From a virus (Duplodnaviria; Heunggongvirae; Uroviricota; Caudoviricetes), in the IMG/VR virus record IMGVR_UViG_2681813264_000007: a stretch of 4,828 nt of DNA; one strand, 5' to 3'. A program made the translations under genes and the position numbers. The stretch's first letter is position 1. Each line of letters opens with the position of its first letter. The notes under the pieces were generated by a model. It made no database searches. It was not told where the DNA came from and worked only from the letters and a program-made list of their open reading frames with translations. Of the stretch, positions 542-4,717 are shown piece by piece.

Positions 542-1600
542 GTGCGGGTATTACTTCGACCTGTTCTGGTACCGGAACTCGGTCTGGTTATCGTTAAGCC
601 AGGCCGTGAATCAATGTCAGCATTCCATAACGGCAGAATACTGGTGGAGCCGGAACCAAAAAGCATGCGTAATCTGCCGTCCGGGGTCGTTCCTGCCGCT
701 CGCCAGCCGCTGGTGGAAGACAAAACATTGCTGCCGTTTTTCAGTAACGCACGGGTGATTCGTGCTGCTGGTGGTGCTGGTGCATTGTCTGACTGGCTGT
801 TGCGCCATATTAAATCCTGCCAGTGGCCACACGGCGATTATCATCACAGCGAAACCGTCATTCACCGTTATGGTACCGGCGCAATGGTGTTGTGCTGGCA
901 CTGCGACAACCAGCTGCGTGACCAGACATCCGAATCACTCGAGCAACTTGCTCATCAAAACCTGTCAGCATGGATGATTGACGTCATCGGTCACGCAATA
1001 AGCGGTACGCAGGAGCGTGAATTATCTCTGGCTGAATTATCCTGGTGGGCGGTCCGCAATCAGGTGGCGGACGCGCTACCGGAAGCGGTATTACGTCGTT
1101 CGCTGGGGTTGCGTGCGGAAAAAATTCGCTCTGTGTACAGTGAAAGCGACATCATACCGGGAGAGCAGACAGCCACCAGCATACTGAAGCAGCGCACAAA
1201 AAATATTGCGTTACTGCCTCACGTCCACCAGCAACAGAACCCACCACAGGAAAAGACGGTGGTCAGCATTGCCGTTGATCCGGAGTCACCGGCTCAGTAT
1301 CTCCAGCGCCAGAAATCACAACGGGAAGAGATGCCTGTATACACGCGCTGGGTAAAAACGCAGAAATGCATGACGTGTGGCAATCAGGCAGATGATCCGC
1401 ATCACATCATTGGTCATGGACTGGGAGGGATGGGAACAAAGGCTGATGATTTGTTTGTTATTCCGTTATGCCGTAAATGCCGTAACGAACTACATGCCGG
1501 AGTAAAAGATTTTGAAGAGAAACACGGCAGTCAGCTGTTGTTGCTGATTCGTTTTTTAATGCACGCGAGAAATTCGGGTGTTCTGAAGTGGAAAGCATAA
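542..1600 (+). CDS. DUF968 / YdfU-like prophage protein with two NinG-type Cys/His (HNH-like zinc) modules; putative DNA-processing enzyme
   Basis: 352-aa ORF. The C-terminal motif CMTCGNQADDPHHIIGHGLGGMGTKADDLFVIPLCRKCRNELH is characteristic of the NinG/YbcO/DUF968 group, and an N-terminal module CQWPHGDYHHSETVIHRYGTGAMVLCWHCDNQL is related. GTG start at 542 follows GGAGG (533-537); an ATG at 614 is an alternative, so the start is uncertain. Stop TAA 1598-1600 abuts the rusA ATG. Confidence 0.8.
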   Translation: MRVLLRPVLVPELGLVIVKPGRESMSAFHNGRILVEPEPKSMRNLPSGVVPAARQPLVEDKTLLPFFSNARVIRAAGGAGALSDWLLRHIKSCQWPHGDYHHSETVIHRYGTGAMVLCWHCDNQLRDQTSESLEQLAHQNLSAWMIDVIGHAISGTQERELSLAELSWWAVRNQVADALPEAVLRRSLGLRAEKIRSVYSESDIIPGEQTATSILKQRTKNIALLPHVHQQQNPPQEKTVVSIAVDPESPAQYLQRQKSQREEMPVYTRWVKTQKCMTCGNQADDPHHIIGHGLGGMGTKADDLFVIPLCRKCRNELHAGVKDFEEKHGSQLLLLIRFLMHARNSGVLKWKA

Positions 1601-1981
1601 ATGACCGAGCGCATAGAATTTGTTTTACCTTACCCGCCGACGGTGAACACTTACTGGCGTCGTCGTGGCAGCACATATTTTGTATCAAAAGCCGGTGAGC
1701 GTTATCGCCGTGATGTGGCGCTTATTGTTCGCCAGCAGCGGCTGAAATTAAGCCTGTCCGGAAGGTTGGCAATAAAAATTATTGCAGAACCACCGGATAA
1801 GCGCCGCCGTGACCTGGACAATATTCTGAAAGCGCCGCTGGATGCGCTGACGCATGCGGGGTTGCTAATGGACGATGAGCAGTTTGATGAAATCAATATC
1901 GTTCGTGGTCAGCCAGTATCTGGTGGACGTCTGGGGGTGAAGATTTACCCCATAATGCATGAAGAGCAGGTCAAAAAATGA
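1601..1981 (+). CDS. rusA: Crossover junction endodeoxyribonuclease RusA (Holliday junction resolvase)
   Basis: 126 aa. The N-terminal LPYPPTVNTYWRRRG and the acidic catalytic segment PDKRRRDLDNILKAPLDALT match the RusA family signature (E. coli RusA is about 120 aa). The start ATG directly follows the upstream stop (TAAATG) and the stop overlaps the next start (ATGA). Confidence 0.9.
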   Translation: MTERIEFVLPYPPTVNTYWRRRGSTYFVSKAGERYRRDVALIVRQQRLKLSLSGRLAIKIIAEPPDKRRRDLDNILKAPLDALTHAGLLMDDEQFDEINIVRGQPVSGGRLGVKIYPIMHEEQVKK

Positions 1982-2797
1982 AACTGGAAGATTTACCGAA
2001 ATACTACTCCCCAAAATCCCCCGGCCTGACTGATGCATCGGCCTCAACGTCGAAAGATGCGCTGAGTATCACTGATGTGATGGCCGCGCAGGGCATGACA
2101 CAGAATCGGGCTGAGATGGGGGTTTCTGCGTTCCTTGGGAAAATGGGCATTAGTATGAATGACAGAGAGCGGGCAACAGAATTGCTGACAGAATATGCAC
2201 TCAGTCGGTGTGATCGCGTGGCGGCGTTAAGAAAACTCCCGGCAGAAATAAAACCGGCAGTGATGCGTATTATGGCTTCGTATGCGTTTGAAGATTATGC
2301 CCGTAGCGCGGCGAGCAAAAAACAGTGCCCCTGCTGTCACGGAAAAAAATTTATTGAAAGCGAGGTTTTTACAAACAAGATCCAGTATCCGGATGGTAAG
2401 CCGCCGGTATGGGCAAAGTGTACGAAAGGTGTGTATCCGTCTTACTGGGAAGAATGGAAAAAAGTCAGGGAGGTGGTAAAAGTTGCCTGTCCGGAGTGTG
2501 GCGGAAAGGGTGAGGTTTCCACCGCCTGTAAGGATTGCCGTGGGCGTGGTGTCGCCATTCATCGTGAAGAGTCGGTAAAACGTGGTATGCCTGTTATCAG
2601 AGACTGCCAGCGTTGTGGTGGTCGTGGCTATGAAAGACTACCATCAACGGAGGCATTTAATGCTATATGCGAGGTGACAAACCAGATAACACGCGCGTCA
2701 TGGGAAAAAACAGTTAAGAAATTTTATGATGCGCTGGTGACCCGGTTTGATATTGAAGAAGCATGGGCTGAGCGGCAGTTAAAAAAGGTAACTAGGT
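1978..2797 (+). CDS. Late-gene antitermination protein Q (QuuQ/phage-21-82-like family), 3' end truncated by the N-run
   Basis: At least 273 aa, with four CxxC pairs in DnaJ-like CxxCxGxG spacing (CPCCHGKK, CPECGGKG, CKDCRGRG, CQRCGGRG). It sits immediately downstream of rusA and upstream of a tR'-like terminator and the late-region cargo, which is the canonical Q position. The ORF enters the N-run, so the true stop is unknown; the track's end at 2904 is an artefact of translating N as X. Confidence 0.7.
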
Positions 2798-2839
2798 NNN
2801 NNNNNNNNNNNNNNNNNNNNNNNNNNNNNNNNNNNNNNN
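2798..2839. other. Run of 42 ambiguous bases (assembly gap or masked sequence)
   Basis: Directly visible as n characters. The true length and content are unknown. By lambdoid gene order the Q stop codon, the late promoter PR' and the qut site are expected here. Confidence 1.
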
Positions 2840-2876
2840 ATGGGCGTTTTATGCCTGACGTTAGAAGAGTTTCTAC

Positions 2877-2902
2877 AACCCGCCGCCGAGCGGGTTTTTT
2901 AT
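2877..2902 (+). terminator. Rho-independent terminator, tR'-like (late-operon terminator subject to Q antitermination)
   Basis: GC-rich stem CCCGC (2879-2883) pairing with GCGGG (2890-2894), 6-nt loop, then TTTTTT (2895-2900). Positioned just downstream of Q, as tR' is in lambdoid phages. Confidence 0.65.
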
Positions 2903-3020
2903 GACTGAAATCGCGTCAGTACAGTAAACGCGCTGGTGGCGGTGAATACCTGTCTTTCAGCTTGCTGGCTTTTTCGACAAGAGTTATTGGTGTGTCACGT
3001 TAACCGGAAAAGGAAAAGAC

Positions 3021-3218
3021 ATGCTAAAACAGCAGGATATGACAGAAACCGCCAGAGTGGTGTTTAATGAATTAAGCGTTACCGAACCGGCGACAGTCGG
3101 GGAGATAGCGCAGAATACTTACCTTTCACGCGAACGCTGCCAGTTAATACTGACTCAGCTTGTTATGGCGGGTCTGGCAGATTATCAGTTCGGTTGTTAC
3201 AGACGCCTTCCGCAGTGA
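3021..3218 (+). CDS. Small winged-helix-like DNA-binding protein (65 aa), hypothetical regulator
   Basis: Good SD, AGGA (3011-3014), 6 nt before ATG 3021. The segment TVGEIAQNTYLSRERCQLILTQLVMAGLA has the hydrophobic/Gly pattern of small wHTH regulators (AsnC-N-terminal, PapI/FaeA-like). Family assignment is by pattern only. The stop TGA lies inside a terminator hairpin. Confidence 0.55.
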   Translation: MLKQQDMTETARVVFNELSVTEPATVGEIAQNTYLSRERCQLILTQLVMAGLADYQFGCYRRLPQ

Positions 3219-3230
3219 AGGCTTTTTTAT
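3205..3230 (+). terminator. Rho-independent terminator overlapping the stop codon of the 65-aa ORF
   Basis: Stem GCCTTC (3205-3210) pairing with GAAGGC (3217-3222), loop CGCAGT, then TTTTTT (3223-3228). Confidence 0.6.
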
Positions 3231-3245
3231 TTGTGGTAAATGGGC

Positions 3246-3276
3246 GGCTGGTGGGTGTTAGGGGCACCCACCAGCC
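3246..3276. repeat. Perfect 12-bp inverted repeat with 7-nt loop, carrying a Chi octamer in each arm
   Basis: GGCTGGTGGGTG (3246-3257), loop TTAGGGG, CACCCACCAGCC (3265-3276). GCTGGTGG is on the + strand at 3247-3254 and on the - strand at 3268-3275. No T-tract follows, so it is not a classical terminator. Confidence 0.9.
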
Positions 3277-3317
3277 ATCTGCTCATGCGTTGGGTTCACA
3301 AGCAAACCTCAGGCCCA

Positions 3318-3336
3318 CTGCTTTGCGCAAAAGCAG
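3318..3336. repeat. Second hairpin / near-palindrome in the methyltransferase leader
   Basis: CTGCTTT (3318-3324) pairs with AAAGCAG (3330-3336) around the loop GCGCA. The core TTTGCGCAAA (3322-3331) is a perfect DNA palindrome. Confidence 0.7.
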
Positions 3337-3368
3337 AATGAGCCTATCAGAGACAGGCTTAATGATCC

Positions 3369-4427
3369 ATGCTTAATACTGTAAAAATATCCAGTTGTGA
3401 GTTAATCAACGCCGACTGCCTGGAATTTATCCGGTCGTTACCCGAAAATTCTGTTGACCTGATAGTCACGGACCCGCCGTACTTTAAAGTGAAGCCTGAG
3501 GGCTGGGATAACCAGTGGAAGGGCGACGATGATTACCTGAAGTGGCTGGACCAGTGTCTGGCGCAGTTCTGGCGGGTACTGAAGCCTGCCGGAAGTCTTT
3601 ACCTGTTCTGTGGTCATCGCCTGGCATCTGATATCGAAATCATGATGCGTGAACGCTTCAGTGTGCTGAACCATATTATCTGGGCGAAGCCGTCCGGACG
3701 CTGGAACGGATGCAACAAGGAAAGCCTGCGGGCGTATTTCCCCGCCACAGAGCGCATTCTGTTCGCGGAACATTATCAGGGGCCGTATCGTCCGAAAGAT
3801 GCCGGGTATGCGGCGAAGGGCAGTGCACTGAAACAGCATGTGATGGCCCCGCTGATTTCTTACTTTCGTGATGCGCGAGCTGCCCTGGGGATAACGGCAA
3901 AACAGATTGCAGATGCCACAGGAAAGAAAAACATGGTGTCGCACTGGTTCAGTGCCGGTCAGTGGCAGTTGCCGAATGAAAGCGATTATCTGAAATTACA
4001 GGCGCTGTTTGCCCGGGTGGCAGAAGAGAAGCATCGGCGTGGTGAACTGGAAAAGCTCCACCACCAGCTGGTGGATACGTATACCTCACTGAACCGGCAG
4101 TATGCGGAGCTGCTGAGTGAATATAAACATCTGCGGCGGTATTTTGGCGTGACGGTGCAGGTGCCGTATACCGATGTGTGGACGCATAAACCGGTGCAGT
4201 TCTATCCCGGGAAACATCCGTGCGAAAAACCGGCAGAAATGCTGCAGCAGATAATCAGCGCTAGCAGTCGTCCGGGTGACCTGATTGCAGATTTTTTCAT
4301 GGGGTTGGGTTCGACAGTGAAAGCGGCACTGGCGCTCGGGCGTCGTGCAATTGGCGTTGAGCTGGAGACTGAACGTTTTGAGCAGACGGTTCGGGAAGTA
4401 CAGGATTTAGTCAGCCAGAACGGATGA
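3369..4427 (+). CDS. DNA methyltransferase, beta-class N6-adenine/N4-cytosine amino-MTase (N6_N4_Mtase fold), apparently orphan
   Basis: 352 aa. The catalytic DPPY motif lies near the N-terminus (VDLIVTDPPYF, nt 3471-3482) and the AdoMet-binding FxGxG motif near the C-terminus (DLIADFFMGLGSTV). Motif IV before motif I defines the beta permutation. A roughly 130-aa variable region between them is the presumed target-recognition domain. No restriction endonuclease gene is adjacent. Confidence 0.9.
   Translation: MLNTVKISSCELINADCLEFIRSLPENSVDLIVTDPPYFKVKPEGWDNQWKGDDDYLKWLDQCLAQFWRVLKPAGSLYLFCGHRLASDIEIMMRERFSVLNHIIWAKPSGRWNGCNKESLRAYFPATERILFAEHYQGPYRPKDAGYAAKGSALKQHVMAPLISYFRDARAALGITAKQIADATGKKNMVSHWFSAGQWQLPNESDYLKLQALFARVAEEKHRRGELEKLHHQLVDTYTSLNRQYAELLSEYKHLRRYFGVTVQVPYTDVWTHKPVQFYPGKHPCEKPAEMLQQIISASSRPGDLIADFFMGLGSTVKAALALGRRAIGVELETERFEQTVREVQDLVSQNG
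4061..4074. repeat. 14-bp perfect palindrome CCACCAGCTGGTGG containing Chi on both strands, inside the methyltransferase CDS
   Basis: Direct reading: CCACCAGC (4061-4068, Chi on - strand) overlaps GCTGGTGG (4067-4074, Chi on + strand). It encodes the H-Q-L-V-D stretch of the methyltransferase. Confidence 0.9.
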
Positions 4428-4467: not shown

Positions 4468-4543
4468 GGCCCTTTAGCTCAGTGGTGAGAGCGAGCGACT
4501 CATAATCGCCAGGTCGCTGGTTCAAATCCAGCAAGGGCCACCA
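4468..4543 (+). tRNA. ileZ: tRNA with CAT anticodon, most likely tRNA-Ile2 (lysidine, AUA-reading; ileX/ileZ-like) rather than tRNA-Met
   Basis: Manual cloverleaf: acceptor GGCCCTT pairs with AAGGGCC; D-arm GCTC/GAGC; anticodon loop CTCATAA (CAT at 4501-4503); T-arm GCTGG-TTCAAAT-CCAGC; discriminator A; encoded CCA. The anticodon arm GCGACTCATAATCGC resembles E. coli ileX. The symbol is by analogy with the ileZ-argN-argO trio of Stx phages and is tentative. Confidence 0.8.
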
Positions 4544-4550
4544 TCACATA

Positions 4551-4627
4551 CCGCCATTAGCTCATCAGGAAAGAGCGCCAGCCTTCGAAGCTGGCTGCGC
4601 GGGGTTCAAGTCCCCGATGGCGGTCCA
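4551..4627 (+). tRNA. argN: tRNA-Arg, anticodon TCG (reads CGA/CGG)
   Basis: Manual cloverleaf: acceptor CCGCCAT pairs with ATGGCGG (C1:G72); D-arm GCTC/GAGC; anticodon stem CCAGC/GCTGG with loop CTTCGAA (TCG at 4585-4587); T-arm CGGGG-TTCAAGT-CCCCG; discriminator T; encoded CCA. The symbol is by positional analogy only. Confidence 0.75.
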
Positions 4628-4640
4628 TTATCTGCATCAT

Positions 4641-4717
4641 GCGTTGTTAGCTCAGCCGGACAGAGCAATTGCCTTCTAAGCAATCGGTCACTGGTTCGAA
4701 TCCAGTACAACGCGCCA
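4641..4717 (+). tRNA. argO: tRNA-Arg, anticodon TCT (reads AGA/AGG; argU-like)
   Basis: Manual cloverleaf: acceptor GCGTTGT pairs with ACAACGC; D-arm GCTC/GAGC; anticodon stem ATTGC/GCAAT with loop CTTCTAA (TCT at 4675-4677); T-arm ACTGG-TTCGAAT-CCAGT; discriminator G; encoded CCA. Resembles E. coli argU. The symbol is by positional analogy only. Confidence 0.8.

Follow-up and report, generated by a model that had tools for sequence, protein, structure and literature searches.

Chi sites of both orientations are dense in the nin/Q region of a lambdoid prophage and in its DUF968 gene family

Results

Chi is the signal that switches the host RecBCD enzyme from DNA destruction to repair. The 4,828-nucleotide stretch of viral DNA analysed here (the window) carries nine exact copies of the octamer, GCTGGTGG, and we consider it likely that they are genuine Chi sites and that selection maintains their density in the origin-to-cos arm, the lineage being a lambdoid one that encodes neither a RecBCD inhibitor nor a recombinase. 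An exact-octamer scan places five on the + strand (709, 767, 2932, 3247 and 4067) and four on the - strand (1173, 1225, 3268 and 4061), a nearly even division. All nine lie precisely where the initial annotation had put them, and the peptide contexts it gave are right as well (PLVE at 709, AAGG at 767, HHQLVD at 4061/4067). As part of a common lambdoid prophage, the window corresponds to the nin/Q region, which is situated between replication origin and cos; its features are as follows.

542..1600, + strand: DUF968/YdfU gene (Pfam DUF968, 2.6e-62; HNHc_6; PHROG 96, HNH endonuclease)
709..716, + strand: Chi, DUF968 gene position 168, ccG CTG GTG Gaa, PLVE
767..774, + strand: Chi, DUF968 gene position 226, GCT GGT GGt, invariant AAGG motif
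1173..1180, - strand: Chi, DUF968 gene position 632, gCC ACC AGC, ATS
1225..1232, - strand: Chi, DUF968 linker, gene position 684, gtC CAC CAG Caa, VHQQ
1601..1981, + strand: RusA Holliday-junction resolvase gene (Pfam RusA, 2.3e-16), no Chi inside
1978..2799, + strand: Q-type antiterminator gene (Pfam Antiterm, 1.6e-53), with a DnaJ-like zinc-finger region
2932..2939, + strand: Chi, intergenic, ~35 nt 3' of a terminator-like hairpin after Q
3245..3276, no strand assigned: intergenic hairpin, 12-bp perfect stem (14 bp as folded), with Chi in its left arm (3247-3254, +) and right arm (3268-3275, -)
3369..4427, + strand: N6/N4 DNA methyltransferase gene (Pfam N6_N4_Mtase, 7.9e-42)
4061..4074, no strand assigned: 14-nt palindrome CCACCAGCTGGTGG in the methylase gene, HHQLVD, with overlapping Chi at 4061-4068 (-) and 4067-4074 (+)
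4468..4717, + strand: tRNA cluster Met(CAT), Arg(TCG), Arg(TCT), marking the late region

The DUF968/YdfU product has a conserved N-terminal domain and a C-terminal His-Me (HNH) nuclease domain, the latter belonging to group 7 of the His-Me superfamily (PMC5714182). An N-run at 2798-2839 masks 42 bases, the equivalent stretch of which in E. coli 55989 is free of Chi; it also hides the Q stop codon, and the end of Q was set by homology to an 822-nt gene in relative L001. The Met(CAT) tRNA is annotated ileZ in relatives. Because lysis and terminase genes lie downstream in relatives (L001, L103, L182), the + strand of the window corresponds to the 'top' strand of the lambda map.

The excess of Chi does not depend on a single null model. 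Two hundred dinucleotide-preserving shuffles of the window gave a mean of 0.19 Chi and a maximum of 2, so that nine is an excess of about 47-fold. The roughly 60-fold over-representation claimed in the initial annotation therefore stands against random sequence only; against E. coli it falls to ~8.6-fold, as the K-12 density of 1008 Chi per 4.64 Mb (PMC12315714) predicts 1.05 per window. A codon-preserving expectation of ~1.1 likewise leaves an excess of ~8-fold. The six coding Chi compare with 1.03-1.08 expected from synonymous-codon shuffles, which keep the peptides and each gene's codon usage and take no account of dicodon bias; by strand, there are 3 against 0.87 (+) and 3 against 0.16 (-). 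Codon usage, earlier offered as an alternative, thus predicts only ~1.1 sites and the excess stands. Since 3247 and 3268 pair as opposite arms of a single hairpin, and 4061 and 4067 share a palindrome, the sites represent seven independent events; at 1.12 expected, the Poisson probability is 1.7e-4 for at least seven and 2.8e-6 for at least nine. It is the exact octamer that is over-represented, as one-mismatch variants (10 against ~4.6 expected) are enriched only ~2-fold. The copies have nothing consistent in common outside the octamer, which is itself the repeated unit, and three of the nine are intergenic. The excess is also local: in the closest annotated prophage, that of E. coli 55989, the homologous module holds 9 Chi in 5.1 kb (1.75/kb) versus 7 in the other 33 kb (0.21/kb).

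The E. coli 55989 prophage (94.5% identity) retains all nine Chi; other relatives show partial turnover. Among 68 relatives, 97% retain site 1225, against an average of 47% for its flanks, and 91% of 77 retain site 2932, despite variable bases on either side. Site 1173 is kept in 76% and persists in distant clades with diverged flanking synonymous sites, where an A-to-T amino-acid change (GCC to ACC) leaves the octamer intact. Site 767 is kept in 62% and recurs in clades below 50% amino-acid identity. Of the two hairpin Chi, that in the left arm is retained by 93% of relatives and that in the right arm by 54%; for the methylase palindrome the figures are 90% (bottom-strand site) and 61% (top-strand site), and a bottom-strand Chi at methylase position ~690 is found also in phages Ayreon, Hafnia yong2 and Eeyore. 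Site 709 is a recent gain, as just 14% of 63 relatives share it and most read GCTGGCGG. As single sites turn over in this way (709, 3268, 4067), any selection would act on number and orientation and not on each site. Many sites lie in conserved peptide motifs (AAGG, CWW, VLVE, ATS), and protein constraint is part of their persistence.

The core Chi island of the window is the DUF968 gene, with four Chi in 1.06 kb. Chi is present in all 178 of 178 distinct DUF968 genes, from nine clades, and 128 unique genes average 1.49 top-strand sites against 0.44 expected from synonymous shuffles, and 1.69 bottom-strand sites against 0.12. Top-strand sites are densest in the 5' part (3.0/kb in the first 500 nt) and bottom-strand sites mid-gene (3.4/kb in the second 500 nt), over backgrounds of 0.1-0.4/kb and ~0.05/kb, respectively. 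Both orientations occur in eight of the nine clades, the bottom-strand form being absent from one (L009 type). Bottom-strand Chi has been re-created convergently, in three codon phases (ATS, xHQQ/xHQL and PPA); in other clades the linker site is read in a phase different from that of the window (CCA CCA GCn, PPA). The octamers persist where flanking synonymous sites diverge. A Vibrio-phage homolog with 27% identity, in a locus of 42% GC, carries Chi at 105+, 512+ and 700-, the only ones in 7 kb. In the functional phage mEp460, four of nine Chi, including its only two bottom-strand sites, fall in the 1.05-kb DUF968 gene (binomial 3e-5).

At whole-genome scale, eight related phages and prophages carry 104 top-strand and 31 bottom-strand Chi; 27 of the 31 lie between the replication gene and cos, where 8.7 were expected (1e-11), and none in the structural regions. 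Codon-aware expectations for seven genomes give, from origin to cos, 41 top-strand sites against 10.6 and 21 bottom-strand sites against 2.5 (8.3-fold), and, in the structural region, 26 against 10.2 and 0 against 2.3. With DUF968 set aside, bottom-strand Chi still number 13 against ~2.3. Both genome sets were picked for carrying DUF968, and the relatives are phylogenetically non-independent. No Gam, Abc2 or strand-annealing protein is recognisable in the complete relatives examined.

Discussion

Chi enrichment in the ori-to-cos interval of inhibitor-less lambdoids is already known (Bobay 2013; Zheng 2025). Such phages concentrate Chi between ori and cos (PMC3784561), and those without a Rec module carry abundant Chi at the right end, and RecBCD improves their growth (PMC12315714); that Chi attenuates RecBCD and feeds RecA recombination where Gam is missing is the published account for them (PMC3784561, PMC12315714). 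The phages studied here resemble them in their lambdoid architecture, in lacking Gam, Abc2 and annealing proteins, as judged from the complete relatives examined, in Chi well over composition and codon expectation concentrated at the right end, and in a genome-wide top-strand majority. They differ in the window's 5-to-4 strand division with its two palindromic pairs, in a bottom-strand enrichment that is confined to the origin-to-cos arm, and in having a single family, DUF968, as a conserved Chi island.

We infer each step of the following mechanism. A phage with neither RecBCD inhibitor nor recombinase would have to coexist with host RecBCD. By analogy with the lambda paradigm and LLS phage work, RecBCD would enter the right cos end opened by terminase, move leftward and encounter the top-strand sites in the order 4067, 3247, 2932, 767 and 709. 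On recognising Chi it would cease degrading the 3' strand and load RecA, so that degradation would become recombination and yield packageable concatemers. The bottom-strand sites (1173, 1225, 3268, 4061) may, in a role as yet unpublished, do the same for rightward-moving RecBCD starting from ends that form in or close to the replication origin, candidates being the tips of rolling-circle tails that grow rightward and breaks that accompany replication. Such an origin-side entry would account for the confinement of bottom-strand Chi to the region right of the replication genes. The joint molecules formed would then be processed by RusA, and perhaps by the DUF968 nuclease; cooperation between Chi and RusA, as first proposed in the initial annotation, is plausible from the adjacency of the genes.

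Dabert, Ehrlich and Gruss reportedly found in 1992, for rolling-circle plasmid multimers, that a correctly oriented Chi shields the free tail of the rolling circle from RecBCD, which offers a precedent for the mechanism proposed for the bottom-strand sites. That plasmid system is engineered, and we know of no evidence of natural selection for such sites in phages.

For the top strand, the proposed mechanism is identical to that of lambda chi+ red gam (Stahl/Smith), in which the right cos end admits RecBCD and a Chi approached from its 3' side promotes RecA-dependent exchange, restoring growth (PMC12315714). Wild-type lambda, by contrast, has no Chi and encodes Gam. Bottom-strand Chi is inactive in classical lambda crosses (PMC12315714), that orientation becoming active only if cos is inverted, and the rightward route is therefore unproven. 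Phage P1, with 50 Chi in 94.8 kb and growth that needs RecBCD and RecA, is likewise temperate, Chi-rich and without a RecBCD inhibitor (PMC12315714). Its DUF968 homolog PdcB (25% identity) has three Chi in 1.04 kb, at homologous gene positions 78, 246 and 503. However, P1 is not lambdoid, all three of these Chi are on one strand, the top, and pdcB lies 0.9-1.9 kb from pac and not 6-10 kb from cos. The E. coli chromosome shares the octamer and the enzyme, and its Chi are also over-represented, mostly coding and in the G-CTG-GTG-G frame, yet they number only ~1 per 4.6 kb and are skewed for recognition by RecBCD moving toward oriC. The window's bottom-strand Chi, unlike these, lie to the right of the phage origin and face RecBCD that moves away from it.

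Other explanations deserve consideration. It is possible, though rather unlikely, that Chi is kept for RecBCD/RecA recombination at module borders, by which the HNH-RusA-Q cassette would be shuffled and spread among co-resident prophages, to the gain of the module and not of lytic growth. The inward-facing sites 1173/1225 (-) and 2932/3247 (+) flank the HNH domain, RusA and Q, and lambdoid mosaicism is extreme here. Similarity breakpoints with relatives form clusters at ~1275-1300, immediately to the right of the - site 1225, and at ~2875-2925, immediately to the left of the + site 2932, both on the side where Chi stimulates exchange. But Chi adjoins only two of ~10 breakpoint clusters, with ~1 expected by chance, both also fall at a domain or gene border, where mosaic joints are expected, and top-strand enrichment in structural genes is left unexplained. 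Module exchange and selection for Chi in RecBCD-dependent growth are compatible.

We disfavour, as unlikely, the view that Chi is unselected, a by-product of Chi-compatible peptides in DUF968 and the methylase (LV, AGG, C/S-WW, ATS, HQQ, PPA, HHQLV) whose codon choices drifted in and then hitchhiked with a very successful mosaic module among E. coli prophages. Sites do fall in conserved motifs, CWW with a TGC codon makes Chi almost automatically, and several sites are freely gained and lost; 4661 of 5426 E. coli genomes carry the module, so that many counts are copies of few ancestors. Against this, shuffles keeping peptides and codon usage give about one site, not six, and across the family 0.12 bottom-strand Chi per DUF968 gene, not 1.69. 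Different clades acquired bottom-strand sites independently, using three codon phases and distinct places in the linker, and the octamer survives the A-to-T replacement. A third of the window's sites are intergenic, one-mismatch neighbours do not share the enrichment, and the pattern holds at 27% identity in the 42% GC Vibrio phage.

It is highly unlikely that the +/- pairs (709/767 with 1173/1225, the hairpin and the palindrome) are kept as RNA or cruciform structures in which Chi identity is incidental. GCUGGUGG and CCACCAGC are perfectly complementary, the 3245-3276 hairpin is very stable, in a region folding at -45 kcal/mol (z = -3.1), and one common right-arm variant (C to T) would retain a G-U pair in RNA. 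Complementarity between the DUF968 sites nevertheless ends at the octamer boundary, at 8-9 nt. The hairpin has no T-run after it and no significant Rfam match, its arms are unequally kept, and no compensatory changes were seen in it among 85 relatives; nor would structure explain the unpaired site 2932 or the clades with only + or only - sites. A decaying cryptic prophage might also ameliorate toward host composition and so gather Chi like the chromosome, a caveat that Zheng et al. raised for prophage-based surveys and one that touches a module whose relatives are mostly prophages, but this reading is refuted here, as amelioration cannot yield ~8 times the host density while the remainder of the same prophage is at host density, and the same pattern occurs in functional, plaque-forming or induced mEp460, Ayreon, Eeyore, ST64B and yong2.

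Selection for Chi in the origin-to-cos arm thus remains our preferred reading, and part of it is new. The published model covers the five top-strand sites only and treats bottom-strand Chi as inactive, so that 'bidirectional protection' reaches by inference past current knowledge. Bobay 2013 and Zheng 2025 make no mention of bottom-strand enrichment, balanced strands, palindromic pairs or DUF968 as a deep and conserved Chi island. The strong enrichment of 'wrong-way' Chi falls outside the published model.

Gene content and position of the window

Judged from its predicted genes, the window is the nin/Q region of a lambdoid prophage, with DUF968, RusA, Q, methylase and tRNAs in the lambdoid order. 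Searches for open reading frames (ORFs) and domains, together with an Rfam scan in which the three tRNAs were the sole significant matches, gave the following features.

Features of the window
First part of the window: end of the hok/rem region (ORFs and domain searches)
542-1600: DUF968/YdfU, 352 aa, with a C-terminal His-Me (HNH) nuclease domain (ORFs and domain searches)
1601-1981: RusA (ORFs and domain searches)
1978 to ~2799: Q-type antiterminator, stop codon under the N-run 2798-2839 (ORFs and domain searches)
Between Q and the methylase: 65-aa ORF, orf65 (ORF search)
3369-4427: N6/N4 DNA methyltransferase (ORFs and domain searches)
4468-4717: three tRNAs (Rfam scan)

The run of 42 N at 2798-2839 masks the Q stop codon and the beginning of the Q-to-orf65 spacer, and a 308-aa ORF spanning it was discarded as an artefact. 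Terminator-like hairpins with T-runs occur on the + strand at 2877-2896, after Q, and at 3205-3222, after the 65-aa ORF; a conserved Chi at 2932 lies ~35 nt past the first of them. A scan of 2700-3450 revealed no sigma-70-like promoter, and neither the late promoter nor the Q-utilisation site of this type of Q could be placed. The three tRNAs, Met(CAT)/Arg(TCG)/Arg(TCT), are the ileZ-argN-argO cluster, which in Stx phages comes before stx; its first member is Met by ARAGORN and Ile in the record annotation, and no stx gene follows the cluster within the window.

Of 5426 complete E. coli genomes, 4661 contain parts of the window and 1001 contain at least 80% of it. The closest relatives are E. 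coli chromosomes (93-96.5% identity), with others in Shigella and E. albertii, and the methylase-tRNA part is common to many Stx2 phages. No full-length identical record was found in the genome_contigs, IMG/VR, phage or E. coli collections, and the window is a mosaic of segments 99-100% identical to different UViGs; whole-prophage context was therefore taken from relatives. Annotated relatives have replication genes upstream of this region and, 3-6 kb downstream of it, the genes for lysis and terminase. It follows that the window is located between ori and cos and that its + strand corresponds to the top strand on the lambda map. The DUF968 gene is itself mosaic, an N-terminal domain joined to an exchangeable nuclease domain, since megablast similarity stops at ~1292 and resumes at 1602. 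In its C-terminal HNH part (1293-1600), the gene carries an allele that diverges from those of most relatives.

Chi excess in the window

A pattern search for the exact Chi octamer GCTGGTGG found nine sites, five on the + strand and four on the - strand, at exactly the coordinates and with the peptide contexts that the initial annotation had given. Nine sites represent seven independent Chi events, because 3247 and 3268 are the two arms of a single hairpin and 4061 and 4067 overlap within a single 14-nt palindrome, CCACCAGCTGGTGG. Dinucleotide-preserving shuffles of the window contained a mean of 0.19 Chi and a maximum of 2. The ~60-fold excess originally proposed holds against random sequence but shrinks to ~8.6-fold against E. 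coli K-12, whose density of 1008 sites in 4.64 Mb (cited in PMC12315714) predicts 1.05 Chi for this length. The Poisson probability is ~1e-4 for at least seven Chi and ~2e-6 for at least nine. One-mismatch variants gave 10 further matches against ~4.6 expected, or ~2-fold, so the strong excess is a property of the exact octamer. Membership of the Chi copies in a longer repeated element was ruled out: their likeness stops at the octamer, and the flanks share nothing consistent.

It is already in the literature that lambda-like phages lacking Gam have a right arm laden with Chi, by which they exploit RecBCD instead of blocking it. Lambdoid (pro)phages lacking a RecBCD inhibitor are Chi-enriched, with the motifs concentrated between the replication genes and terminase (Bobay, Touchon & Rocha 2013, PMC3784561), and 62 of 68 lambdoids without a Rec module have at least eight top-strand Chi (PMC12315714). 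Phage LLS, whose growth is enhanced by RecBCD, has 23 Chi, 20 of them on the top strand, with a cluster at the right end (Zheng, Casjens, Davidson, Amundsen & Smith 2025, PMC12315714). In the accompanying model, terminase leaves the right cos end open, RecBCD enters there, and top-strand Chi turn it into a recombinase loader; Chi in the opposite, bottom-strand orientation is described as inactive (PMC12315714). The same study gives GCTGGCGC as the proposed Pseudomonas Chi (Zheng 2025, PMC12315714).

Nine complete relatives were examined (the 55989 prophage of E. coli, mEp460, Stx2a_1447, ST64B, Eeyore, Hafnia yong2, Yersinia YeP1, Providencia PSTRCR_117lys and Ayreon), and none has a Gam, Abc2 or strand-annealing protein that is annotated or detectable with PHROG or Pfam. 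Several carry a DnaQ-like 3'-5' exonuclease only, which corresponds to class A/B of Zheng et al. (PMC12315714). Given the published pattern and these inhibitor-less relatives, the Chi excess of the window is probably an instance of the described phenomenon. Like the inhibitor-less lambdoids (Bobay 2013; Zheng 2025), the window and its relatives have Chi above composition- and codon-based expectation, concentrated from ori to cos at the right end; unlike them (Zheng 2025), the window lacks a strong top-strand bias, with five top and four bottom sites. Chi enrichment here is almost certainly selected and RecBCD-related, as far as sequence comparison can tell. A role of Chi in attenuating RecBCD and favouring RecA-dependent recombination, as the initial annotation envisaged, coincides with the published explanation and is partly supported.

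Compatible with such selection is the possibility that the Chi sites are hotspots of module exchange. Two of the mosaic joints are found on the side of a Chi where exchange is predicted, at ~1292 after the - strand Chi 1225 and at ~2877-2925 before the + strand Chi 2932. However, two of ~10 joint clusters beside a Chi is the chance level, and both joints also coincide with domain or gene borders. Module exchange is possible and not exclusive of the main explanation.

A second alternative is that Chi arises as a by-product of peptide and codon usage and hitchhikes with its genes. Synonymous codons were shuffled within each gene, keeping the protein sequence and the codon usage of the gene and leaving out dicodon bias. 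These shuffles predict 1.03-1.08 coding Chi against six observed (P < 1/3000), with 4 against 0.57 in DUF968 and 2 against 0.5 in the methylase. By strand, the coding sites number 3 against 0.87 on the + strand (P = 0.026) and 3 against 0.16 on the - strand (P < 1/3000). Against a by-product also stand the three intergenic Chi of the window, the restriction of the enrichment to the exact octamer, and bottom-strand Chi in three codon phases. We therefore disfavour it.

Retention of the exact octamer among the 63-87 relatives aligning at each site
Chi 709, + strand: 14%
Chi 767, + strand: 62%
Chi 1173, - strand: 76%
Chi 1225, - strand: 97%
Chi 2932, + strand: 91%
Chi 3247, + strand: 93%
Chi 3268, - strand: 54%
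Chi 4061, - strand: 90%
Chi 4067, + strand: 61%

Flanking 8-mers have a mean retention of 43-82% in the same relatives. Sites 1225, 2932 and 4061 are clearly stabler than the surrounding sequence, and at 2932 the octamer is constant while the bases on either side vary. As retention varies this widely, Chi sites come and go, and uniform purifying selection on every site is rejected by a range of 14% to 97%.

Chi pairs might instead be kept as structure-forming inverted repeats, a reading that we disfavour because complementarity stops at the octamer. The hairpin at 3245-3276 has a stable stem, but no T-run follows it, Rfam gave no significant match (best P26, 24 bits against a gathering score of 36), and no compensatory changes appear in 85 relatives; it was accordingly rejected as a terminator or structured RNA. 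The + and - Chi pairs in DUF968 were likewise rejected as long-range RNA partners, their complementarity being only 8-9 nt. The palindrome at 4061-4074 contains CAGCTG, a PvuII-type site, inside the methyltransferase gene. Its bottom-strand Chi, at methylase position ~690, has been conserved in the methylase genes of Hafnia, Ayreon and Eeyore.

Amelioration toward host composition is refuted by a window density far above that of the host. The 55989 prophage (94.5% identity to the window) carries all nine Chi, and its remaining 33 kb hold only seven, or 0.21 per kb, the host density. With shuffles predicting about one site and the rest of this prophage at host level, codon bias and amelioration, both raised initially as alternatives, are rejected, and the excess is local.

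The DUF968 gene as a Chi island

Chi is present in all 178 distinct DUF968 genes that we collected from E. coli, Shigella, E. albertii, Enterobacter, Kosakonia, Phytobacter, Symbiopectobacterium and IMG/VR contigs. Among the first 128, 100 have at least three Chi in ~1.05 kb, and the mean per gene is 1.49 on the + strand against 0.44 expected and 1.69 on the - strand against 0.12 (synonymous shuffles). In these 128 genes, top-strand Chi peak in the first 500 nt at 2.97 per kb (background 0.1-0.4 per kb) and bottom-strand Chi in the second 500 nt at 3.36 per kb (background ~0.05 per kb). Nine clades are separated at <75% amino-acid identity, and eight of them contain both orientations.

Top-strand sites encode the peptide motifs GLVV, VLVE, PLVE, AGG and C/S/G-WW. 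Bottom-strand sites occur in three codon phases, ATS (gCC ACC AGC), xHQQ/xHQL (nnC CAC CAG Cnn) and PPA (CCA CCA GCn), and at differing positions within a variable linker; this is convergent re-creation and not the descent of one peptide. More distant homologs also show the pattern. A homolog from a Vibrio anguillarum phage (27% identity, in a 42% GC locus) has Chi at 105+, 512+ and 700-, the only ones in 7 kb. In the functional phage mEp460, the DUF968 gene holds four of nine genomic Chi, including the only two on the bottom strand (binomial 3e-5). The Stx2a_1447 gene has Chi at 226+, 497+ and 626-. Stx2a_1447 has a different nin region, with only the orf65-methylase-tRNA segment in common with the window, and the 9.4 kb that run from its cII to its methylase (7.2-16.6 kb) contain 12 Chi.

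PdcB of phage P1 is a DUF968 homolog (25% identity) with Chi at 78+, 246+ and 503+. Its gene lies 0.9-1.9 kb from pac, directly upstream of lpa and pacA (P1 88859-90812), and going left from the pac cleavage site its three top-strand sites come before any other Chi. The packaged pac end we take to be on the other side of the cut from pdcB; if so, RecBCD entering the unpackaged end would meet the pdcB Chi first.

RusA is nearby in most lambdoid DUF968 loci among the window, L238, L239 (the P1 locus) and L240-L245. We found no Gam-positive DUF968 phage; all the complete DUF968-bearing phages examined, a small sample, lack a Rec module. DUF968 may be a marker or component of a RecBCD-dependent lifestyle, on the genome content of this small sample. 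Three genome_contigs contigs labelled as Veillonella parvula, Geobacteraceae and Caulobacter segnis MAGs (L007, L009 and L014) carry enterobacterial-type DUF968 prophage modules, with DUF968 proteins 47-78% identical in amino acids to that of the window; the Caulobacter contig is 92% identical to a Kosakonia locus. These contigs are probably binning contaminants.

Bottom-strand Chi in the origin-to-cos arm

Genome-wide, Chi in eight DUF968-bearing (pro)phages are biased to the top strand, with 104 sites there and 31 on the bottom strand. Of the 31 bottom-strand sites, 27 are located between the replication-initiator gene and cos, against 8.7 expected (binomial 1e-11), in genomes that were chosen through DUF968 and are mutually non-independent. 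The other four lie at most ~2.5 kb to the left of the replication-initiator gene, and none of the eight has a bottom-strand Chi in its structural or early-left regions. With a codon-aware null, which leaves out dicodon bias, coding Chi in seven relatives number 67 against 20.8 expected on the + strand and 21 against 4.9 on the - strand.

Coding Chi by region in seven complete genomes, observed against expected
Structural region, 141 kb coding: top 26 against 10.2; bottom 0 against 2.3
Origin-to-cos arm, 59 kb coding: top 41 against 10.6 (3.9-fold); bottom 21 against 2.5 (8.3-fold, P ~6e-13)

Without the DUF968 gene, the origin-to-cos arm still has 13 bottom-strand Chi against ~2.3 expected (P ~1e-6). 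Coding-strand effects cannot explain the difference between the two regions, since both are transcribed rightward. Top-strand Chi are also found on the antisense strand of leftward early genes. We could not find in the literature the balanced two-strand layout, the 8-fold enrichment of bottom-strand Chi in the origin-to-cos arm with their confinement to it, or the deep DUF968 island; DUF968, bottom-strand clusters and palindromic Chi are mentioned in neither PMC3784561 nor PMC12315714.

Discussion

Top-strand Chi would act through entry at cos, as in the lambda and LLS model. If RecBCD recognizes Chi in about a third of encounters, five sites in series would raise recognition close to 90% and a tandem pair to ~58%, a gain that the 52-58-nt pairs 709/767 and 1173/1225 would fit.

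It is tempting to speculate that the bottom-strand sites are active as well. They would then make up a further class of positively selected sites, restricted to the origin-to-cos arm, and DUF968 would be an ancient two-way island (top-strand Chi in the 5' 500 nt, bottom-strand Chi at ~400-700 nt). Across phages of E. coli, Hafnia, Yersinia, Providencia and Vibrio, this layout would have been kept and also re-created in different codon phases. We offer this idea tentatively, and on balance would sooner wager against it than for it.

Two mechanisms may be envisaged. In the first, bottom-strand Chi would stop RecBCD that enters by a second route, at or near the origin, and travels rightward from rolling-circle tail tips or origin breaks. 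The tail tip of a rightward fork would have exactly the polarity needed, and the first correctly oriented Chi met would be those of the nin region. Having found no usable support in the open-access literature for RecBCD entry at rolling-circle tail tips, we infer that step. In the second, the outward-facing order in DUF968 (+ sites left, - sites right) would mark a double-strand break programmed to occur within this gene, for which the DUF968 HNH nuclease itself may be responsible. At each of the two ends RecBCD would then give rise to a RecA filament in the space of a few hundred bases, and these filaments could launch recombination-dependent replication in phages without a recombinase. The neighboring RusA would resolve the junctions that result. 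A simpler possibility is that each orientation can arise only where suitable peptide motifs happen to be available.

The window is one more Chi-rich example, and comes from one of the commonest prophage modules of E. coli. If bottom-strand Chi in the origin-to-cos arm are really selected, RecBCD must have a second entry route that is absent from the cos-entry model, and the DUF968-RusA pair would be a candidate host-dependent module for recombination initiation. In practical terms, the arrangement bears on prophage mosaicism, including that of Stx phages which have the methylase-tRNA segment in common, and on the amount of spacer material or degradation product that RecBCD makes from such phages.
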